This document shows positions 105 through 9,737 of a DNA stretch of 64,000 nt, in pieces; the stretch's first letter is position 1, and every line of letters begins with the position of its first letter. Below the pieces are notes generated by a model. That model saw nothing but the letters and a program-made list of their open reading frames with translations, was not told the DNA's origin and did not search any database. Source of the stretch: Candidatus Poribacteria bacterium (lineage in GTDB: Bacteria > Poribacteria > WGA-4E > PCPOR2b); NCBI GenBank assembly GCA_965116925.1, contig OZ220744.1, positions 3,584,001 through 3,648,000 on the forward strand. The letters are read 5' to 3'. The position numbers were made by a program, and so were the translations under genes.

Positions 105-1175
105 ATGGCAGAAGAAACAGAAACAATCAATTTTTTCGACATCCGGGTTGAACACTTCCCTGACCGGAGTGCCCGATGGTTATTCCAAGACACAGAGAAC
201 GTCCGAGGATTGTTAGAAATCGTCGCAGCCGAGTTGGTAGAACTGATCGATTTTAGCCAACTCGCTCAGATTAACAGGAGTTTTGTTCCTGACAACCTTC
301 GAGAACAGGAGTCTGACCTCGTATTTAGTGTGCCATTACACCACGAATCGGAAACCGATGAACTGCTAATCTATATCCTTATTGAACATCAATCCACGGT
401 GGATTTGACAATGGGATTTCGGGTGCTGTTCTACATGGTACAGATTTGGGATTCCCAACGCCGGGAATGGGAGTCGAACGATGTGCCCAAAAGTCAGTGG
501 CGTTTCCGTCCGATTCTCCCGATTGTGTTTTATACTGGCGATCAGAGATGGAGCACGCCGCTGACCCTCAACGCAATAATGGACCTCCCCGATCTGTTTT
601 CTCGGTTTGTCCCACAATTTGATACCCTGTTTCTCAGTGTAAAGGAGACAGAGGAAGCGAACCTGACGAAAACCGATCATCCGCTTGGCTGGTTACTAAC
701 GGTTTTACGAAAGGAACATTCAGACAAGGAAGCGATAAGCACTGCGTTAATCGAAGCGATGTCGCACATCAACACGCTTGGAGACGCACAATCGCATCAG
801 CGGCGTCGGGCGATATCTTATCTGCTATTGCTGATTTTGCATCGCCGTCCGGCTGAGGAACACGAAGAATTACAAACACTCTTTGACCAACACATCCAAC
901 AACCCTCAGACAGAGAGGAGGTAGAAGTCATGGCACAGACAATGGCTGAACATCTCATTGAACGCGGCAAAGCACAAGGTATCGAACAAGGTGGAACACA
1001 AGCGAAACAGGAGGTTATCCTTAAAATGATACGGTTACGATTTGATTCCGTCCCCGAAGCTGTAACCAACCAGATTACTCAGATACGGAGTCACTCCCGT
1101 TTGGATGCCCTTGTTGAGAACGTGATGACCGCGCAAACACTTGATGAAATTGACTTGCAAAACCGTGATGGTTAG
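105..1175 (+). CDS. Rpn/YhgA-family recombination-promoting nuclease / putative transposase (PD-(D/E)XK)
   Basis: ESDLVF...YILIEHQS motif, PILPIVFYTG, C-terminal ERGKAQGIEQG repeat region; RBS AAGGAG upstream. Confidence 0.9.
   Translation: MAEETETINFFDIRVEHFPDRSARWLFQDTENVRGLLEIVAAELVELIDFSQLAQINRSFVPDNLREQESDLVFSVPLHHESETDELLIYILIEHQSTVDLTMGFRVLFYMVQIWDSQRREWESNDVPKSQWRFRPILPIVFYTGDQRWSTPLTLNAIMDLPDLFSRFVPQFDTLFLSVKETEEANLTKTDHPLGWLLTVLRKEHSDKEAISTALIEAMSHINTLGDAQSHQRRRAISYLLLLILHRRPAEEHEELQTLFDQHIQQPSDREEVEVMAQTMAEHLIERGKAQGIEQGGTQAKQEVILKMIRLRFDSVPEAVTNQITQIRSHSRLDALVENVMTAQTLDEIDLQNRDG
930..1175 (+). CDS. Putative internally translated small Rpn C-terminal protein (RpnS-like antitoxin), 81 aa
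   Basis: In-frame ATG at 930 (MAQTMAEHL) preceded by a strong RBS, AGAGGAGG; the same RBS and start are reused by the free copy at 1231. Confidence 0.6.
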   Translation: MAQTMAEHLIERGKAQGIEQGGTQAKQEVILKMIRLRFDSVPEAVTNQITQIRSHSRLDALVENVMTAQTLDEIDLQNRDG

Positions 1176-1230
1176 GTTCTGTTGATATGTGACAGATTGC
1201 GTGTTGGGTGTCAGGGAGGAGGCACAAGTC

Positions 1231-1452
1231 ATGGCGCAGACAATGGCGGAACATCTCATTGAACAAGGTAAAACACAAGCAAAACAGGAGGCAGTTCTCA
1301 AACTGTTGCGGTTCCGATTCGATTCCATTCCCGAATCTGTAACCAACCAGATTACGTTGATACGGAGTCTCTCGCATCTGGATTCACTCTTTGAGAACGT
1401 GCTGACCGCGCAGACCCTTGATGAAATTGATTGGCAAAACCGTGATGGCTAA
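1231..1452 (+). CDS. Free-standing Rpn C-terminal domain protein (RpnS-like), 73 aa
   Basis: RBS GGGAGGAGG, then MAQTMAEHLIEQG...TLDEIDWQNRDG; paralog of 930-1175. Confidence 0.75.
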   Translation: MAQTMAEHLIEQGKTQAKQEAVLKLLRFRFDSIPESVTNQITLIRSLSHLDSLFENVLTAQTLDEIDWQNRDG

Positions 1453-1553
1453 GAACCCGTTTTGATATTTCAAATCCGTTCCCGATAGGGTCCATTTGGG
1501 GACAAATTCCCCAAATGCCCTAAAAATGCCTTTGCCACCTCCTTTTCAGATTG

Positions 1554-2507
1554 TCAGGCTTTCGCTTCGGAATGCCGATGAAAGGAGAGCTCAGAGCGGA
1601 CGACCGAAAAGTCCATACGGGTATAGAGTCCAATCGCCTGAAGATTTTTGGCTTGCGTGCCGACTTGGATCTCTGATGTCTTCCCCTGATAGTGTCGAAT
1701 TGCCTCCGCGACCAATGCTTTACCGATCCCCCTGCCGTGGAACGCCGGATCCACCGCAATCAATTCAATTTCCCCTACCGTTTCTGTACCTACTTTCGAT
1801 CGGAGCAGCGCAAATCCGACAATGCGCTTTCCGCTCTCCGCAACATAAATCGCTTCGGCACGTCCCTTGAACCCGTTACGCACCCATTCACGCCGCGAAT
1901 GACGGGCGCGGGGTTCAGGGATCTGCGGATCGACCCGTAACCGAAACGATTGAAAGGCGCGATAAGCAATTGACGCAACCGCCTCCATTTCGTCCGGCTG
2001 CGCGAGTCGGATATGAAAATCGGATCCACCGTCAAACGGAATCTCACCGGCGGTCTTTCGCCCAAAGGTCAGAAATGATTCGATAACCCTGAACCCCACC
2101 CCTTCGACTGCGTGGAGCGCGGCTAATCCATCTTCAGGGAGCCGAACCGACAGAAAACGAACCCCGTGATCCTCCGCATCCGCAATACACGCCTTCAGAA
2201 CGCTATCAAGTCGATGGCACTGTTCAGTATACTCCCCCTCCGCCCACAACCCTCCAACTGAACCCGACGAGCAGCCAAGCACTTGACTATCCCACGGCAG
2301 AAATCGCCAGCCCACCAACGCCTGCAACCGATCCTCTTGACGCAGCCACCACGCACGGGTGTCTGAGTCAACCGCATAATCGAATGCCGAACGCAACGCC
2401 TCCGGATTAGCTGTTGTACAAGCCGCGAGACACTCGTGGTTGACAAGTTCGACCATTTCTTTTGGAGATGCTCCATTGCTGAGTTGTGCCTTCGGGGGAT
2501 TCTTCAA
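1554..2507 (-). CDS. GNAT acetyltransferase (WecD-like), last gene of the RiPP-like operon
   Basis: IELIAVDPAFHGRGIGKALV acetyl-CoA motif, VGTQAKNLQAIGLY; TTG start with AAGGAG RBS. Confidence 0.85.
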   Translation of the reverse strand: MKNPPKAQLSNGASPKEMVELVNHECLAACTTANPEALRSAFDYAVDSDTRAWWLRQEDRLQALVGWRFLPWDSQVLGCSSGSVGGLWAEGEYTEQCHRLDSVLKACIADAEDHGVRFLSVRLPEDGLAALHAVEGVGFRVIESFLTFGRKTAGEIPFDGGSDFHIRLAQPDEMEAVASIAYRAFQSFRLRVDPQIPEPRARHSRREWVRNGFKGRAEAIYVAESGKRIVGFALLRSKVGTETVGEIELIAVDPAFHGRGIGKALVAEAIRHYQGKTSEIQVGTQAKNLQAIGLYTRMDFSVVRSELSFHRHSEAKA

Positions 2508-2518
2508 TCTTGCTCCTT

Positions 2519-2825
2519 TAGGACTTACGCAGTTAAAAGATGAGGTGTTAAGGTAGCATGAGTGAGATTAAAAAGGTTACGTTTCGCCTGCGAAAATCAA
2601 ATTTTCCCAATTTTCCCGCGCAAATGGGAAAATTGTCCCTATTTCAGCATGAAACGTTTCGTCATGCCTGCCAATGGCATTACAAACAGTTACAAACAGT
2701 TACATTACAGGACCCTTGATGGTGCGTCTACTGTGGTCGCCCGATTCATCAGGGGTTGGACATTGTGTTCTGCGGTGATAAATCGCCGAACTACAGGATT
2801 TTGACACTCAACTGCGTAAGTCCTA
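2519..2825. mobile_element. MITE with TAGGACTTACGCAGTT terminal inverted repeats (TIRs) and a 5-bp TSD (TCCTT)
   Basis: Perfect 16-bp TIRs at 2519-2534 and 2810-2825; TCCTT at 2514-2518 and 2826-2830. Confidence 0.85.
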
Positions 2826-2838
2826 TCCTTATTGGACC

Positions 2839-4440
2839 TCAGTACCGTTCAATGACGAGGTGTTTCATGTTTTCGATCAGGTCTGCGTAATTCGTAAGTT
2901 TGGCGTCAAACTGGATTTCTAATGGAGACAGAAGGTGTTGAAAATGGGGACTGAGGAGAATGATTGCAAAGTCCTCCTGTAGAATCGAAATCACCTTCTG
3001 TCCAATCATCCTTCTTTGGGGTATATTCATCGTTTCGTCTAACTGAGAGAGCAGCGCATTCACCTCGGGATTGGCATAGCCAAAAGCGTTAGTTCTCCCT
3101 TGAGGGTGAAAGTATTGAAACAATCGGTTATAATGCTCCCCAAAGAAAATTCGGCTTAAAAAGACATCTGCTTCTCCCCACATATTTTGCAGCCCATCTT
3201 CTTCAAGAAAAACGGGATTAATTGTCGACTTTCCTACCGATTTTCCAACTTGATTAGCCACATAGAGAGCCATTGATACCTCTTTCGGATAAATTATATT
3301 CAAGTCAAGGGCAGAGTGCTTTGTAACTTTCGTCACATTTTCGTCAAGGTGTTGTCCGCCGTGAAGATAGCGGTTAATCGCTTGATAATCGATCGCCTCC
3401 TTCAACCAACGGCAGTTGCTTTCGTCTTTGAGCAAACCGTGACAACGATTGAGGAACATCAGATAGTAGGCTTCCCCGAAAAAGGGGGCCTGCTGCAACG
3501 GTAGGTCGTTGGAAATCTGGTACATAGGTTGCAACGCATCAAGGCGTATAAGATCGATTTTTTGGTCGAGGAGGGCTTTGATTGCATACGCGGCGTGCTT
3601 AAAGCGTTTGATGGTGATCCAGTCAATTCCGCCTTTCTTCTCTTGATAGTAATCTGGATTCCGCGTAAGTCGAAAATTGATGGCTTTCGGGCTGAAGCTC
3701 TTCTTCAAGCGATAGGCACCGGACGTCACGCGATACGGATGGTGCGAATGGGCTGGGCGGATGGGGAGACTGGCAATATGTCGCGGAAATGTTGATTCCG
3801 CTTTTGTCAACTGGATACGGAATCGGTTTTTGCCAGCAGGTTTTATCTCATCAATCAGTTTTGCGAGACGGCTTTCCGAAATTGTCTGGATAACGTCCTT
3901 TCGTCTAATCGGTTTTCCATCGCTCCAGTGGAGATTGGATCTCAAGGTGATTATCCAAGATGAAAAGTCCTTCGCCGGCTCGATTGCAGTTGCGAGTCTC
4001 CATTCGATTTCTCCGTTCCTATTAATCCAGAAAAGGGAGTCATAACAGAGCCGATCCAGCGAGAATTGGATTGCTGGATGGAGGTTTCCATTAGTAGAGC
4101 GGGTAAACTCCCCGATAGAGAGCCCGTTCGCCTGCGGATGTTCGTCCGGGCTTGCCATACGGATAATGCCGGTGTAAGGGGAGGGATTCAGATGTTCTTG
4201 GAGTCGTCTGTAGATCTCTCTTTTGTAGGGATCGCCTTGGTCAAGTTCCGACAGTAAGAAACGGATCTGATCCGCGTCCAAAGACGGAGTTAGATGTTCC
4301 TTGAGAAGGTTGAGTTCTCCGATGCATTGACTCAGGTATTGCGGTGTGATCCCAACCCCTTGGGCGAGTTGTCTCTTTTTTGCTGACGGGTTCTGTTTCT
4401 GATAGTTAATCAGGTTGATAAGGATATCAATTTTGGACAT
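2839..4440 (-). CDS. HTH plus family-5 solute-binding-domain protein (SgrR-like architecture), probable cytoplasmic regulator
   Basis: N-terminal KRQLAQGVGITPQYLSQCI HTH; no signal peptide; LRSNLHWSDGKPI and SGAYRL...LTRNPDYY SBP_bac_5 motifs; ATG at 4440 after AAGGAAGGGAG. Confidence 0.75.
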   Translation of the reverse strand: MSKIDILINLINYQKQNPSAKKRQLAQGVGITPQYLSQCIGELNLLKEHLTPSLDADQIRFLLSELDQGDPYKREIYRRLQEHLNPSPYTGIIRMASPDEHPQANGLSIGEFTRSTNGNLHPAIQFSLDRLCYDSLFWINRNGEIEWRLATAIEPAKDFSSWIITLRSNLHWSDGKPIRRKDVIQTISESRLAKLIDEIKPAGKNRFRIQLTKAESTFPRHIASLPIRPAHSHHPYRVTSGAYRLKKSFSPKAINFRLTRNPDYYQEKKGGIDWITIKRFKHAAYAIKALLDQKIDLIRLDALQPMYQISNDLPLQQAPFFGEAYYLMFLNRCHGLLKDESNCRWLKEAIDYQAINRYLHGGQHLDENVTKVTKHSALDLNIIYPKEVSMALYVANQVGKSVGKSTINPVFLEEDGLQNMWGEADVFLSRIFFGEHYNRLFQYFHPQGRTNAFGYANPEVNALLSQLDETMNIPQRRMIGQKVISILQEDFAIILLSPHFQHLLSPLEIQFDAKLTNYADLIENMKHLVIERY

Positions 4441-4500
4441 TTTTGTGTAAAAATCTCCCTTCCTTTGAAATGTTGCACCTTTAAGGGAAGGGAGCATGCT

Positions 4501-5847
4501 CTAACCCTTCCCCACAGTTGCTTTGTGGTGTGCCTTAATCAGTTCCGGCACAATCAGATCATATTCTTCTTTCTTCGGGTTCGCTTCGGTAATCTTTCCC
4601 CTCTGATGGAGGGCATCGACTCGGCAGTCAGAACATATCGGAAGATACGAACAAGAGAGACATTTCTCTGAACGTTGGTACTGCTCCTTAAGAACGGTGT
4701 CGATTCCGCCAAATCCGGTGGCGATATGCCCCGCCTCGTATTTTGTATCCCGACCGATAAAGGTGGTACAGGTGTACAGTTTACCAGAAGGCTCTAGGGT
4801 AAAATTCCGTCCGTCGTGCCGCTGCATCGCGCACCATGTGTGACTCGGAAGGAGATCGTCCAAAAGCCCCCGCTCTGCGGCATAGATTGAGAGTTTTGCA
4901 ATCTTGACGAGGATTTCTCTCTCCGCAGCGGTCTTTTGGCCTTTATCAGTGTACAACTGAGAGACGGCGATGGTCTCGTTGTCGTTGGTCTCCATCACCG
5001 GCGAAAATGTTACACGAACCCTTCTGTCCGCATAGCCGCTATCCGCCAGGGTGTCGATCAGTTCATAAGCGGCAGCCACACGCGACTCATCCAGAACGCA
5101 GAGGACATCGGTACGAATCAACCCCGCGTATTCGGCGAGGTTTTTCATGATTGTCGCGTAGGTGCCTCTGCCGCTTTGAAAGGGACGGGAGGCATCGTGT
5201 GTCCTCTGATTCCCGTCAATTGTGATCTGCGCTTGGGTGAATCCGAGGGGGCGCAGCGTTTCGACAACCTTCCGTGTCAGCAACACGCCGCTGGTCACCA
5301 TCCCGAAATGGAAGCGGATACCCTTCTCCCCACAGAACCGCTTCAGTTCCGTTGCAGTTGAGACGATCGCCTTCAGGTTCGAGAGCGGTTCACTGCCGTA
5401 GTAGCTGATAAAGAGACGTTCCGCCTCCACCTTTTCGCACTGTGCCTTGATAAACGCAAGGCATTCGTCCGAAAGATCACCCTCCAAACGTTCCCCGTCG
5501 TGCGTGCCCTGCTGATAGCAGTATCCGCACGCTAAGGGACACCGCTGCAGGTTCGTCAGTAACGTGACGTTGACCTCTCCGCCTTTCTGGTCGGGGGATC
5601 GGTTGAGGTATTCGAGAAACCGCTCGCCTTCGCTGAGTTCTTTCGGAACGAGAAACCCTTGATTCCGAAGCGGTTCGATGATTGTGCGCCACTGATGCTC
5701 AGTCGGAACGTCTTTCGACAGGTTTTGTAGCACATCCCATTCCGCTTTGTCAACTTGAATCAACGCACGGGAGAGCGTGTTGTACAGTAGATGTTGGTCC
5801 CTTTTCGGGTAATCGTTCACAGAGACAGTAAACTGAGATAGCTTCAT
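4501..5847 (-). CDS. Radical SAM/SPASM peptide maturase with an N-terminal RRE-like region
   Basis: CPLACGYC radical SAM motif; SPASM cysteines WCAMQ...YTC...CLSCSYLPICSDC; N-terminal LLYNTLSRAL segment; RBS GGAGGG before ATG 5847. Confidence 0.9.
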   Translation of the reverse strand: MKLSQFTVSVNDYPKRDQHLLYNTLSRALIQVDKAEWDVLQNLSKDVPTEHQWRTIIEPLRNQGFLVPKELSEGERFLEYLNRSPDQKGGEVNVTLLTNLQRCPLACGYCYQQGTHDGERLEGDLSDECLAFIKAQCEKVEAERLFISYYGSEPLSNLKAIVSTATELKRFCGEKGIRFHFGMVTSGVLLTRKVVETLRPLGFTQAQITIDGNQRTHDASRPFQSGRGTYATIMKNLAEYAGLIRTDVLCVLDESRVAAAYELIDTLADSGYADRRVRVTFSPVMETNDNETIAVSQLYTDKGQKTAAEREILVKIAKLSIYAAERGLLDDLLPSHTWCAMQRHDGRNFTLEPSGKLYTCTTFIGRDTKYEAGHIATGFGGIDTVLKEQYQRSEKCLSCSYLPICSDCRVDALHQRGKITEANPKKEEYDLIVPELIKAHHKATVGKG

Positions 5848-5878
5848 AGAACCCTCCAATTGATGGTTGATACACGAC

Positions 5879-5968
5879 GAGAAACCGAGTTTTTTCGGAA
5901 GAACTCGGTTTCTGATTTGTTAAGTTGAGGCCGTTGGGTTTCACGGTTCCCGTTCAACCCAACCTACG
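5879..5968. repeat. REP-like palindromes between the GT2 and radical SAM genes
   Basis: AGAAACCGAG...CTCGGTTTCT hairpin, also found at about 20219, 35582, 37534 and 58193; GTTGGGTT...AACCCAAC hairpin. Confidence 0.7.
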
Positions 5969-5980
5969 CTGAACTACTCC

Positions 5981-7114
5981 TTACTGTTTGCCGACTGCGG
6001 CTTTGAATGTTTGTTGAGTTAAGGTGGAGTAGAACTTACCGAATTGACGACGGAGATCTATCGCCTCCGGGGATAACTGGGAAATACCTCCCACCGAAAG
6101 CTGTCTGTGTTGCTCACCGAATTGGGCGAGGGCTGCTGCCTGCTCTCGATACGGTGAGGGGAGATCCTCGTGCTGGGGAAAAGGTCCGTCCGCATTGACA
6201 GCCAACACCCCCTCCCAGAGCCGTAGCAACGGATCGTTCGGTGCGAGTTGCAGCCCCTTTTCCAATTCCTTCTTGGCAAGCAGGATTCCCTTGCCGTATT
6301 CCCCACCTTTCTGTAGGTAGATCGCAGCACGTAACGCGTAGGCATGTGGCTCGGATTGAAGATTGGGGATCAGGTGGTCCAAAGGGGTACTTTCTATCTG
6401 TTCGCGCGTGAAGTTAAGGATATCCCGCTCCATCTTCGCTCGATTGTCTTTGATGTGGACGGAGCCCCCCGGATGTTGTCGATACTCTGCGAGCGGAAGG
6501 TTGATCGTTTCAACCCTGAATTCCTTTGCAACCCGAATCCACATCTCATAATCCTGTGCTTTGATATCTCTATACGCGCCGACCTTTTGGTGGACGAGGG
6601 AACGCACCATCACTCCCGCACAGGCGGAGATACATCCCATCAGCATATTGAACAACCGTCTATAATCCGGGCATCGACGGGGTGAGCGGGTACGGATCCG
6701 TCGCCCCGTTGCATCAATGTGATAGTAACCCGTTGCGACCAATCCGACCTCCGGATAGGTTTGAAACAGTTCGACGGAACGAGCGACCTTTTCCGGTAAG
6801 AGGCGATCGTCGTCATCAAGCCGTTGAATATATTCCCCTTGTGCCAACGCCAATCCGCGGTTCACGGCAGAGACCAATCCGTCGTTTTTCTGGTATAGAT
6901 AGGTGACTTTGGGCGTCCGGGAGAAAGAGGAACCTGCTGAAAGATACGGCTTGAGGGCAGATCTTGTGGCGGCACCCTCGTCCGATGAACCATCATCGAT
7001 AATCAGGATTTCGATAAAAGGGTAGGTCTGGGCGAGGACACTATTGACCGTCTCTCGCAAATAGTCTGGACGGTCATGGGTTGGAATAATCACAGATACC
7101 AGTCCCGGAATCAT
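5981..7114 (-). CDS. Family 2 glycosyltransferase with a TPR-like C-terminus
   Basis: VSVIIPTHDR...IIDDGSSD, YIQRLDDDD (DxD), QDYEMWIR; C-terminal helical ELEKGLQLAPNDPLL. Confidence 0.9.
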   Translation of the reverse strand: MIPGLVSVIIPTHDRPDYLRETVNSVLAQTYPFIEILIIDDGSSDEGAATRSALKPYLSAGSSFSRTPKVTYLYQKNDGLVSAVNRGLALAQGEYIQRLDDDDRLLPEKVARSVELFQTYPEVGLVATGYYHIDATGRRIRTRSPRRCPDYRRLFNMLMGCISACAGVMVRSLVHQKVGAYRDIKAQDYEMWIRVAKEFRVETINLPLAEYRQHPGGSVHIKDNRAKMERDILNFTREQIESTPLDHLIPNLQSEPHAYALRAAIYLQKGGEYGKGILLAKKELEKGLQLAPNDPLLRLWEGVLAVNADGPFPQHEDLPSPYREQAAALAQFGEQHRQLSVGGISQLSPEAIDLRRQFGKFYSTLTQQTFKAAVGKQ

Positions 7115-7218
7115 CGCTTTTCTCCTTGAAGATGTGGGGTGGGATCAAGGGAAGGTGAAACAGACTAACGCCGTTCCGCACCCTCCCTAATGCTCCCAAC
7201 CCACAGGGTATGTCCCTC

Positions 7219-7392
7219 TCACACATCAATATCTTCTTCCCAATCGATGTCGATATGTGTTTCGTAGTGCCCATACGAACAGCAGAGAAGGGATATCCAC
7301 GCAAATTCTTCTTCGGTCTCTGCCTCCGCCTCAACTTTCAAGGATTCCATCGGGAACCCGTTGTCTACCGGGTTGATGATTTGAACTGCCAT
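7219..7392 (-). CDS. Putative RiPP precursor peptide, 57 aa: MAVQIINPVDNGFPMESLKVEAEAETEEEFAWISLLCCSYGHYETHIDIDWEEDIDV
   Basis: Translated by hand (below the ORF-track cutoff); RBS AAGGAG 6 nt before the ATG; acidic leader and CCS motif; first gene of the GT2/radical SAM operon. Confidence 0.8.
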   Translation of the reverse strand: MAVQIINPVDNGFPMESLKVEAEAETEEEFAWISLLCCSYGHYETHIDIDWEEDIDV

Positions 7393-7462
7393 GTTAATCT
7401 CCTTCGGCGATGGACGCCGGATCGTTGTTACATAAGGGTTTATCGGCTAAAACCGATCTACT

Positions 7463-7487
7463 TGTAAACAATGTTTACATGTTTACA
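7463..7487. promoter_or_regulatory. Palindromic/tandem TGTAAACA-TGTTTACA boxes upstream of the precursor gene
   Basis: TGTAAACA-A-TGTTTACA-TGTTTACA. Confidence 0.45.
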
Positions 7488-7524
7488 CACCAAAGAATAT
7501 CCAATCATTTTTTAGTATGCAAAT

Positions 7525-7571
7525 TTATTTTCTTCAACTTGAAACTATTTGTTTCAAGTTGAAGAAAATAA
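7525..7571. promoter_or_regulatory. Perfect 21-bp inverted repeat in the divergent intergenic region (operator candidate)
   Basis: TTATTTTCTTCAACTTGAAAC-tattt-GTTTCAAGTTGAAGAAAATAA; each arm contains TTCAA-N-TTGAA. Confidence 0.6.
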
Positions 7572-7680
7572 GTTTGACTCTCCTTTGTTGGGTTCTGTAT
7601 TCTTTAGTATCGCAGCGCGGAAATCGGCTTAATCTGCCGATTTCAAACTTAATAACCCTTCAACCCTATGGGAGCCTAAA

Positions 7681-7953
7681 ATGAATTCCTCCACCTCTTT
7701 GAAAAAAAACAATCGTTCCGCCAACGGAAATGAATCTGATGCAAAACAATATCTTAAATGCTCGCTTCCGGCAGATGAGGTGGCACGGCACACCTATTAT
7801 GTCCGTGTGGACCTGCTTGAGAAGCTTCAGGGATACGCCTACTGGGAGCGATACGGAATCTCGGAGCTGATTAACCAGATATTGGAGGAATTCTTTGAGG
7901 ATAAGGATGTCAAGCCCAAGCCGCCTCGGAAGCGGGTGCGATATCGGCGGTAG
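7681..7953 (+). CDS. Small ribbon-helix-helix-type DNA-binding protein
   Basis: RHTYYVRVDLLEKLQGYAYWERYGISELINQILEEFF strand-helix-helix pattern; basic tail. Confidence 0.65.
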   Translation: MNSSTSLKKNNRSANGNESDAKQYLKCSLPADEVARHTYYVRVDLLEKLQGYAYWERYGISELINQILEEFFEDKDVKPKPPRKRVRYRR

Positions 7954-8262
7954 GGGTGGGGTTTCTAAAATCTTTTATCGAATCTTTCAATCGGAATGAG
8001 GTATTTGGAATTTCTGAGTCTCGCTGCCACGGTTCTCTGGTTACGATGAAATATCAACAGCACCTATCTCCTATCAAAAACACATCAATATAATTTGAAG
8101 CCTACACCGACAGAAAGCCGAGCAATATCCGATAAATCCGGTTATCGGACATCGTTGTGAAAGAACAGTCAAAGCCCCAAGCGAGGAACACCCCGCACAC
8201 CTCCCTTGCGGCGAAACTTCAAGTGGTGGGGATTTGAAAGAACAAAGACAAGGAAAAATAAA

Positions 8263-9123
8263 ATGAGCGAAATTACGCAAATCCAAGTGGCTTTAATCGA
8301 TCCTAAGAGCGAAGTCAATGTCCGTAGGCAAGGTGTAGAACAGAATGTGGATCAAGTCAAAGCCTCTATTCAGCGACACGGTTATTGGCAAGATCAGCCC
8401 ATCATTGTTCGCCCCCATCCAAATACAGCCTCCGGATACGACTACCAACACGTTACTGGACAATGCAGGTTCAAGGCATGTTTAGAATTGGGACTGAAAG
8501 AGATTCCCGCTTTTATACTTGAATTAGACGACGATGAAGCCATTCAACGTTCATGGCTTGAAAATGAGGTGCGGGGAGATCTGACATATAGCGACCAAGC
8601 ATACTGGACAGAAAGAATATTCAAACGGTATAACGGTGATGGATATACAGCAGATGAAGCAATAGAACTTGCAGCTAAGTTTCTGGGCAGAACGCGTACG
8701 ACCGTTATGAGATATTATAGTTTAGCCGCATTGCCTGATGATCTCAAGGAACTGGTAGATAGGGGAGTTCTCGATCTAAAATATGCCTCCCCTATTGCGC
8801 AAAGCACCTATCAGGGCGGTTCACGTTTGGCACAATCACAGGAGGCAATGAGAGAACGAACCTCATGGATTCTTGGCTTAGACAGGGAGAATCGGACTCA
8901 TGCAGTTGAGGCTTTAGAACGGTTAGGTCACAAAGCCTCGATTGCAGAGTTGACTGCGTATGTAACGGAAAAAAGTCGTGAATCGAATCGTGTTGTTGAA
9001 TATGCAATACCTAGTGAATTGCATGAAGATTTATTGGAGTGGGGCAAACAGCGAGGTTTGAAAGATGAACCGACAATCATTGGTCATATGGTAATGGATG
9101 CGCTCAAGAGGCGAGGTAGGTAA
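8263..9123 (+). CDS. ParB/Srx N-terminal-domain protein (ParB-like)
   Basis: QPIIVRP...VTGQCRFKACLELGLKEIPA...LENEVRGDL, followed by an HTH region; ATG at 8263 after AAGGA. Confidence 0.75.
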   Translation: MSEITQIQVALIDPKSEVNVRRQGVEQNVDQVKASIQRHGYWQDQPIIVRPHPNTASGYDYQHVTGQCRFKACLELGLKEIPAFILELDDDEAIQRSWLENEVRGDLTYSDQAYWTERIFKRYNGDGYTADEAIELAAKFLGRTRTTVMRYYSLAALPDDLKELVDRGVLDLKYASPIAQSTYQGGSRLAQSQEAMRERTSWILGLDRENRTHAVEALERLGHKASIAELTAYVTEKSRESNRVVEYAIPSELHEDLLEWGKQRGLKDEPTIIGHMVMDALKRRGR

Positions 9124-9737
9124 TGGAGGAAAAAATTGCTAGGGAGTATCTAGCTGCCCCTGAAGGGAAAAAATTATCTGAAGTTGGGGAAGCTGTTGAT
9201 ATTTTGTATCAAAAATATCGTTCCTATAAAGCGATCGCGCAGCAAGTAGGTAATATGTCGGACAAATTCTTGCTTTCAAGACATCGCATATTCCAACTCC
9301 CAACGGGTATTCAGTGGAAGGTTGATCAAGGAGAGATAGGGGTTAAACATAGCTATGAAATATCCCGACTTGAGAATGAAGACGATCAATGGTTGTTAGC
9401 CCTTGCTATTAGCGAGCAAAAACTGACACTGGATGAATGTAAAAATATCGTCAATAGGGTTTCTAACCAGAGCGTTTCAATCGGGGAGGCTCTTAGCGTC
9501 TCAACTGGCATTCGATTTGACGAAACAAAACCCCTAATACTCCCCATTCCACCCGAATTATGGATTTCAATGAGCCGGGCGGCTTGGAACCAAGGCAAGA
9601 ATTGGGAGGATCTCTGTTATCACTTCATTCGTCAAGGTATAGTCTTTAACATGGAACAAATTGAAAGTGAGTTTGAGGCAATCGAATCAGCCATCCGTAA
9701 GGTTAGGGAAAAGATGAGCAGACAGGCAAATTTGTAA
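9123..9737 (+). CDS. ParB-like HTH/central-domain protein lacking the N-terminal CTPase domain
   Basis: YKAIAQQVG...IFQLPTGIQWKVDQGEIGVKHSYEISRL resembles the ParB HTH/central region; start overlaps the upstream stop (TAATG). Confidence 0.55.
   Translation: MEEKIAREYLAAPEGKKLSEVGEAVDILYQKYRSYKAIAQQVGNMSDKFLLSRHRIFQLPTGIQWKVDQGEIGVKHSYEISRLENEDDQWLLALAISEQKLTLDECKNIVNRVSNQSVSIGEALSVSTGIRFDETKPLILPIPPELWISMSRAAWNQGKNWEDLCYHFIRQGIVFNMEQIESEFEAIESAIRKVREKMSRQANL

Follow-up and report, generated by a model that had tools for sequence, protein, structure and literature searches.

What is made by a row of genes in which a short, unannotated peptide gene stands beside a glycosyltransferase, a radical S-adenosylmethionine (radical SAM) enzyme and a regulator? 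The question is raised by a stretch of 64,000 nucleotides (contig OZ220744.1, positions 3,584,001–3,648,000; the window) in the 6.47-Mb single-contig genome of a Candidatus Poribacteria bacterium. Five open reading frames (ORFs) lie on its minus strand in the positions and order described by an earlier sequence-only reading: a 57-residue peptide, a family-2 glycosyltransferase (GT2), a radical SAM/SPASM enzyme, a protein with a helix-turn-helix (HTH) head and a family-5 solute-binding body (HTH-SBP5), and a GNAT protein. Pfam and NCBIfam assign domains to the last four (GT2, radical SAM and SPASM, SBP_bac_5, GNAT) and none to the peptide. The genes appear to belong to a real, conserved and apparently undescribed pathway for a peptide made on the ribosome and modified after translation (RiPP). 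Judged from gene content and conservation, its core is, on balance, likely to consist of the precursor, a GT2 with a tetratricopeptide repeat (TPR)-like domain, a radical SAM/SPASM maturase carrying a RiPP recognition element (RRE), and the HTH-SBP5 regulator, with leader binding, a cross-link and a sugar as its outline.

The precursor is encoded at 7219..7392 on the minus strand, where the ORF call yields the acidic leader and the core that had been described from the sequence. A Shine-Dalgarno AAGGAG (7399..7404, minus strand) lies 6 nt 5' of the ATG and is retained in 10 of 10 orthologous leaders. The acidic leader (residues ~1–31) is followed by the motif W-x-x-L-x-C37-C38-S39-Y40, a variable stretch (41–49) and an acidic tail with W51. 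Across 24 aligned precursors E21, C38 and Y40 are invariant, C37 is found in 23, and W51 and D56 are nearly invariant. The nine ungapped orthologues, a set from which the G011 precursor with its one extra codon was left out for codon analysis, have 57 codons each and no internal stop; their differences fall on the three codon positions as 304/251/511, favouring the third. The ratio of non-synonymous to synonymous differences (pN/pS) is 0.53 overall, 0.22 over the motif (residues 30–40), 0.89 over residues 41–49 and 0.30 in the tail, so by this measure the Cys-Cys-Ser/Thr-Tyr motif is under purifying selection. Only six of the 42,522 short ORFs (35–75 residues) of the genome are at once acidic, poor in Lys/Arg and endowed with Cys-Cys, and two of these six are precursors of this family. 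The ribosome-binding site, kept codons, third-position bias, pN/pS and rarity together indicate that the 57-residue ORF is a real gene. A background ORF scan also gave two more short acidic Cys-bearing ORFs with a Shine-Dalgarno, at 4942642-4942749 and 3286974-3287153 of contig C1 of the genome.

A profile built from the 24 sequences matches 26 times in this Poribacteria genus, in 13 of the 20 genomes, and nowhere in the remaining 131 genomes of the phylum sample; with four distant precursors the total is 30. The suspicion of an unannotated precursor is thereby borne out. None of the 24 precursors matches an NCBIfam peptide model at E up to 5, and the best ESM Atlas placement of the peptide (0.83) gave no lead.

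The maturase was called as an ORF at 4501-5859, and its orthologues begin at ATG 5847, which gives a protein of 448 residues (4501..5847, minus strand). Its best NCBIfam model is the geopeptide maturase TIGR04280 (220 bits, E 4.5e-65, cut-off 400), followed by TIGR04463, CefB, FlmE/OhkG and PapB, and its relatives in Candidatus Poribacteria are 45–92% identical. In the AlphaFold2 model (pLDDT 74, with low values near the clusters) residues 7–82 form three strands followed by helices, a head of RRE type that agrees with the RRE-like N-terminus noticed earlier. The closest solved structures are TigE, first by fold, and CteB, with TM about 0.6–0.65 and 15–17% identity. The radical SAM cysteines are C103/C107/C110, and the SPASM domain holds C339, C360, C396, C399, C405 and C408, with no distal cysteine. 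The SPASM domain of CteB has seven cysteines (PMC10352776, as far as accessible), and so do the G066 enzyme, from another family, and the full-length fusion enzymes described below. By analogy to CteB, a cluster with a site left open to a peptide thiol would agree with the formation of a thioether; other kinds of radical chemistry may apply. In a FastTree phylogeny of 152 enzymes, the window clade of 10 stands apart from 15 geopeptide enzymes that score above the cut-off (support 99 and 100). Comparison with the TIGRFAM radical SAM and peptide pairs thus gave a divided answer: the geopeptide model is the best match, but the enzyme falls below its cut-off and outside its clade, and the precursors match none of the models. 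From its RRE and conserved peptide partner, the enzyme very probably modifies the peptide; a thioether is somewhat favoured over other radical chemistry by the analogy to CteB. Two geopeptide-class enzymes scoring >550 bits, P0198 and P0216, are fused to a C-terminal domain of about 290 residues without assignment.

The GT2 (5981..7114, minus strand), identified by Pfam/NCBIfam, fold and tree, has a GT-A fold and a helical C-terminal domain. The TPR-like addition suggested earlier stands as a helical C-terminus; the TPR assignment itself comes from alignment, because the window protein has no Pfam TPR match of its own and aligns there with the region of fused relatives that matches TPR_1/2. 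The catalytic motifs, with DDDD 100–103 and QD 187–188, are invariant in 15 homologues. In each of the 14 genus copies, spread over 12 genomes, the GT2 gene comes immediately after a precursor gene. When 1.84 billion proteins were searched with a profile, chains turned up in which this GT2 is fused ahead of an RRE-radical SAM enzyme, nine full-length GT2-TPR::radical SAM fusions and one partial. Two of the fusions were compared with the window GT2 and show 41% and 38% identity to it over about 310 residues; in a quick tree the 15 cluster GT2s group with the nine fused ones in a single branch (SH-aLRT 99), apart from 78 generic GT2s. Since all genus GT2s sit behind a precursor and the fusions belong to the same GT2 clade, a cross-link and a sugar on one peptide are likely. 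The fusion to a predicted leader-binding enzyme is the best evidence that the GT2 acts on the peptide, which it probably glycosylates. A metagenome scan with the fusion alignment returned generic GT2 patterns, and none of the 80 retained loci had a radical SAM, regulator or C-terminal-domain match.

The peptides and their neighbours occur in several arrangements. In the genus, ten loci have precursor, GT2, radical SAM enzyme and regulator, followed by the GNAT in eight; five have precursor, radical SAM enzyme and regulator, three of them with a GT2; ten have the precursor and regulator only; and one (L139), whose precursor motif reads Gly-Cys-Asp-Tyr, has the precursor and GT2 only. Counted over the 26 precursors, the partners in the same row are the regulator in 25, the radical SAM enzyme in 15, which confirms the expected association of the short ORF with radical SAM homologues, the GT2 in 14 and the GNAT in eight. 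Precursor and radical SAM enzyme match the same 13 of 20 genomes and the remaining seven match neither. The window genome itself has one locus each of precursor-GT2-radical SAM-regulator, precursor-radical SAM-regulator and precursor-regulator. A DUF4198 gene precedes six precursors. At one of the ten four-gene loci, L038 (G001), the GT2, radical SAM and regulator genes contain many frameshifts while precursor and GNAT are intact, as a result of decay or of assembly error.

The distant loci show comparable groupings. In G024, of another genus, the GT2 and radical SAM genes are accompanied by an acidic peptide of 41 residues, whose motif reads Gly-Cys-Ser-Tyr, and by an XRE-SBP5 gene in convergent orientation. 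In G025 a 58-residue peptide with Cys-Cys-Ser-Tyr lies with the radical SAM enzyme near a contig end. G066 has one locus with GT2, radical SAM enzyme, HTH_11-SBP5 and then a 54-residue Cys-Cys peptide, and a second one with HTH_11-SBP5, a PafC-like HTH gene and a 50-residue Cys-Cys-Thr-Tyr peptide, without GT2 or radical SAM enzyme. The GT2 and radical SAM genes are again adjacent in the G024 and G066 lineages, where both loci also have an HTH-SBP5 gene and a short acidic peptide with Cys.

The GT2 is also the point at which the strongest alternative arises, namely that the peptide is cross-linked and not glycosylated, while the GT2 serves surface glycosylation on a glycan or lipid, like GT2-TPR enzymes of the TarS/TarP type. 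SunS had been proposed earlier as the model for this GT2, and the fold does not bear that out: chondroitin polymerase reaches Z 23.6 and polysaccharide GT2s Z 20–24, while SunS stands at Z 13.2 and rank 39, with a root-mean-square deviation of 11–12 and 13–15% identity in an alignment that reaches into the helical domain. SunS is absent from the Foldseek top 50 and from the 29 PDB matches of the GT2 profile, which is compatible with kinship. The closest solved GT2s are polysaccharide and teichoic-acid enzymes, so S-glycosylation cannot be assumed. A role on glycans also agrees with the glycan-rich surroundings (ArnC-like GT2, PF03706 protein, PMT_2 GT-C, TylF), with two precursor-radical SAM loci that have no GT2, and with G025, whose GT2 lies on a separate contig and was not seen to follow a precursor. 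It is nevertheless unlikely, given the invariable place of the genus GT2s directly behind a precursor, the L139 locus and the fusion of the same GT2 clade to RRE-radical SAM enzymes. If the peptide is the substrate, the acceptor is more likely Tyr40 or a cysteine than residue 39, since two precursors carry Gly or Asp there. O-glycosylation of Tyr is known from cacaoidin (PMC10373908, as far as accessible).

The most constant partner of the precursor is the regulator (2839..4440, minus strand; called as 2839-4497, with orthologues beginning at ATG 4440). It joins an N-terminal HTH head to an SBP_bac_5 body, has no signal, membrane or hydrophobic segment, and is placed by the ESM Atlas with SgrR/YbaE (0.97); a Pfam search found no SgrR_N domain in it. 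The G024 homologue reaches 43 of 476 bits against NF010149, and the G066 protein used as a query returned mostly ordinary solute-binding proteins. An HTH-SBP5 gene adjoins 25 of the 26 genus precursors and three of the four distant ones, with HTH_24-like, XRE or HTH_11 heads, and in 11 loci precursor and regulator occur without enzymes. The association at 28 of 30 precursors, the three head types and the enzyme-free loci suggest a ligand-receptor pair. The regulator is found in 16 of the 20 genus genomes in up to seven copies. The window genome has six; the five further paralogues (~45% identity) lie at C1:1896941-1898533, 2592572-2594194, 2857495-2859114, 4030451-4032157 and 4672079-4673683. 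Members of this family often stand among TolB-like repeat genes in the genus. A complex prediction of the precursor with the solute-binding domain scored 0.00, which counts neither for nor against binding. That the product is the ligand of the regulator is a tentative proposal drawn from this linkage. Retained solo regulators would fit either listening to the peptides of other cells or a different ligand.

An alternative that leaves the regulator as operon controller only, sensing a sugar phosphate or metal complex like SgrR or NikA-like domains, holds that the product is a glycopeptide, bioactive or metal-binding, which an unlinked peptidase and transporter release from the cell. The variable stretch 41–49 suits a diversifying product, and the solved relatives of the regulator's solute-binding domain bind peptides, nickel complexes or sugars alike; the persistence of the regulator without the peptide in three genomes and the DUF4198 gene before six precursors point the same way. 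Against it, an exporter, a peptidase or an immunity gene was not seen in any precursor locus (by Pfam for the window, by eye for the others), the core is strongly acidic, and regulator and precursor occur together without enzymes in two lineages, which makes export quite improbable. The earlier remark that protease and exporter are lacking holds for the 14 window proteins, among which the Pfam scan found no such family.

The GNAT (1554..2507, minus strand) is best matched, below cut-off, by the NCBIfam model of the dTDP-fucosamine acetyltransferase WecD. In the genus it follows the regulator at eight of the 26 precursor loci; the three distant loci with enzymes lack it, as does the second G066 locus. 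All 16 loci of the GNAT family adjoin sugar-pathway genes: in 14 a Zn dehydrogenase follows (three across inserted Rpn genes), and in two, other sugar genes. In six loci the GNAT follows, or shares a frame with, an ArnC-like GT2, and G021 has one GNAT locus in a genome with no radical SAM or GT2 match. In two genera (L256 of G017, 1420-3411; L260 of G021, 772-2352) an ArnC-like GT2 is in frame with a WecD-like GNAT. The sugar-nucleotide block consists of the Zn dehydrogenase, a GalE-like epimerase, an HddA-like kinase and an RmlA-like (long RmlA) nucleotidyltransferase, the HddA, RmlA and GalE matches being below cut-off. From this company the GNAT is probably the first gene of that block and not core to the peptide pathway. 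The block may supply the GT2 donor, or may serve nearby surface-glycosylation genes (PF03706, PMT_2, TylF). The GNAT had been thought to acetylate the peptide or an amino sugar; the former role was rejected, since the protein is WecD-like and travels with sugar-nucleotide genes, and acetylation of the peptide is very improbable, whereas the amino sugar fits better.

The proposed pathway would start with binding of the acidic precursor leader by the RRE. The maturase would hold a core cysteine, most likely C38, at the open auxiliary-cluster site, and after hydrogen abstraction the cysteine sulfur would be joined to a nearby residue, probably Y40, forming a thioether (−2 Da) as in CteB-type enzymes. 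On the same peptide the GT2, acting with inversion, would place a single sugar at the Tyr hydroxyl or a free cysteine and not at residue 39. The donor may come from the adjoining sugar-nucleotide genes, where the GNAT would acetylate an amino sugar. As neither a peptidase nor an exporter is linked to the cluster, the product would stay intracellular or use general machinery. An intracellular product that binds the cytoplasmic SgrR-like regulator, which in turn controls the cluster and the nearby glycosylation genes, is possible but rather doubtful.

Several observations weigh against the pathway as drawn. What is shown is the genes, their conservation and their linkage, from which the steps are deduced, and the co-occurrence counts are not independent, as the genomes are kin and the genes linked. 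The arrangement is not constant: besides the GT2-free loci and the detached GT2 of G025, G018 has a precursor with only a partial radical SAM enzyme and no GT2 match. In six precursors without enzymes pN/pS is 0.84, at low divergence; with constraint so weak they may be deletion relics. G010, G012 and G014 have the regulator without precursor or radical SAM enzyme, and three solo regulators have a 33-residue radical SAM remnant upstream; together with the weakly constrained precursors, these remnants indicate that cluster decay explains part of the regulator pattern. The G066 peptides resemble the window peptide in style and motif only, being missed by the precursor profile and aligned by hhalign at a probability of 16%, and the 54-residue one lacks the C-x-Y spacing. 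The radical SAM halves of the fusions share only ~30–33% identity with the window enzyme and fall beside G066 in the tree, outside the window clade; that they form one clade with it is neither shown nor rejected (approximately unbiased test, p-AU 0.38). The CX2CX5CX2C pattern without distal cysteine is confined to the window clade (10 of 152), against a seven-cysteine pattern in 125 of 152. TigE, first by fold, is presumably not a thioether enzyme.

Among known systems, the pathway would work like a CteB-type radical SAM RiPP with a glycosylation step added, and on the features given below it falls outside the geopeptide, glycocin and mycofactocin families. Geopeptide systems have a short Cys-bearing precursor. 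They share with the window the RRE-radical SAM-SPASM layout, and TIGR04280, a hypothetical equivalog, is the best match over the whole enzyme, but the window enzyme forms a separate branch below the cut-off of 400 and its precursors match no NCBIfam model. A search for geopeptide loci among plasmids and in two sets of 301 genomes, one centred on G062 and one on G061 (seemingly the same sample), found none; as it had no positive control, it shows nothing. Ranthipeptide and sactipeptide enzymes (CteB, PapB, CefB) and TigE are the nearest solved enzymes and share RRE leader binding and a Cys-bearing core; the window differs in its six SPASM cysteines, its Cys-Cys-x-Tyr core with an acidic tail, its dedicated GT2 and the lack of a transporter. 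An RRE-radical SAM-SPASM maturase does lie beside a Cys-bearing precursor here, while a SPASM domain of seven or eight cysteines is absent from the window clade.

Glycocins typically have a double-Gly leader with a peptidase-containing ABC transporter and a disulfide oxidoreductase. The window peptide has no Gly-Gly, and no peptidase-transporter or oxidoreductase family was found among the 14 window proteins. The glycocin enzymes SunS, ThuS and PalS combine a GT-A domain with a helical C-terminal domain and act with a Cys/Ser-bearing peptide (PMC10373908); the window pair has the same features, but SunS is a distant match and a radical SAM enzyme takes the place of disulfide chemistry.

The combination of enzymes had seemed unfamiliar in the sequence-only reading, which does not hold in principle. 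Mycofactocin is a RiPP built by a radical SAM enzyme (MftC), glycosylated by the GT2 MftF and used intracellularly (accessible text of PMC7491314). The window shares with the mycofactocin system (MftA/B/C/D/E/F) a radical SAM and GT2 gene pair, here fused in relatives and predicted to act jointly on a peptide. It differs in having no C-terminal Val-Tyr core, no MftD or MftE, an RRE fused to the enzyme, a TPR-like GT2 and a variable core. By extension, the two enzymes could make a small Tyr/Cys-derived glycosylated cofactor, freed by a general peptidase, for the downstream Zn dehydrogenase and a short-chain dehydrogenase/reductase (SDR). The dehydrogenase has as its best model TIGR03989, a mycofactocin-associated family, and the enzyme pair, the intracellular setting and the conserved Tyr agree with a cofactor; an unlinked peptidase can stand in for MftE, according to the accessible part of PMC7491314. 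This is even less probable than export, because TIGR03989 scores 183 bits against a cut-off of 440 and the MftF model TIGR03965 gives the window GT2 35 of 280, the motif lies inside the peptide and is followed by an acidic tail that is itself conserved, the dehydrogenase and SDR genes neighbour those for the sugar kinase and nucleotidyltransferase but are missing next to the G024 and G066 clusters, and the core differs between species, as is unexpected for a cofactor precursor. That the short ORF is a Cys/Tyr-sensing attenuator leader or an unmodified small protein, with the enzymes acting on other substrates, is scarcely credible: it heads the genus operon and precedes the regulator alone in 10 loci, but the peptide follows the enzymes or the regulator and ends the gene row in G024 and G066, for which reason the attenuator was rejected, and the maturase carries an RRE and belongs among peptide maturases, while constraint falls on the motif amino acids.

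For the regulator, the nearest parallel is SgrR/YbaE/DsvR, cytoplasmic chains of HTH and SBP_bac_5 beside a small-peptide gene (bioRxiv 10.64898/2026.04.01.715812, in its accessible part). The window family agrees in fusion, location and neighbouring peptide gene and differs in lacking SgrR_N, in its three HTH types, in reaching seven copies per genome and in its link to a modified-peptide pathway. The proposed function would resemble peptide sensing of the Rgg/SHP type, with another fold.

Radical SAM clusters with glycosyltransferases are mentioned in genome mining (PMC10352776, PMC7470986), and RRE-Finder (PMC7470986) reports RRE-glycosyltransferase fusions, the accessible text not naming Poribacteria. 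With the mycofactocin precedent, these mentions mean that the pairing is not new in principle. The peptide family, the fusion enzyme, the six-cysteine SPASM domain and the SgrR-like tie were not found in NCBIfam, Pfam or the literature searched, in which subscription papers are mostly not included; the terms 'geopeptide' and 'TIGR04280' do not occur in the papers screened for them. The accessible parts of PMC6423787, PMC11832590, PMC9426513 and bioRxiv 10.64898/2026.08.03.742642 do not describe the cluster, nor do those of bioRxiv 10.1101/2023.06.09.544420, whose figures show Poribacteria clusters without names.

Upstream of the precursor, a divergent gene (7681..7953, plus strand) encodes a protein of 90 residues that is kept beside 10 of 10 full clusters, has no Pfam match and is presumably ribbon-helix-helix-like (by eye). 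The gap between the two divergent genes contains inverted repeats at 7460-7482, 7520-7576 and 7620-7644; all three are conserved and are candidate operators. The 26-nt arms of the repeat at 7520-7576 covary, 18 of 18 pairs being kept with differing sequences in four of the nine orthologues that have it; it is missing in G015. As it has no T tail, it suggests an operator or cruciform rather than a terminator. Two adjacent ParB-like genes (ParB_N/KorB and DUF7119) occupy 8206-9737; behind them come genes for DUF559-TPR and T5orf172 proteins, and the low-GC stretch that holds these genes varies between relatives. At the other end, tandem Rpn/YhgA putative transposase genes and fragments (window 105-1452 and C1:3581955-3583732) lie between the GNAT and the Zn dehydrogenase, a site also struck in G005 and G007.

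Glycosylated RiPPs are rare (PMC10373908, as far as accessible), and mycofactocin is the one case found of a single product to which both a radical SAM enzyme and a GT2 contribute. The pathway comes from an abundant, uncultured sponge symbiont and offers 30 precursor sequences, a 57-residue substrate and two soluble enzymes suited to direct co-expression, and the six-cysteine SPASM domain may mean unusual chemistry. The boldest extension, a new RiPP class in which a radical-made Cys-Tyr ring with a rare sugar from the neighbouring genes acts as a signal specific to the species, is sensed by a transcription factor of SgrR fold and is made in some lineages by a single fusion enzyme, is speculative and, on present evidence, unlikely. 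If true, the loci with precursor and regulator but no enzymes, together with the solo regulators, would provide further channels and listeners within the dense community of the sponge, and SgrR-type regulators would gain a defined peptide ligand, as a new kind of peptide signalling.

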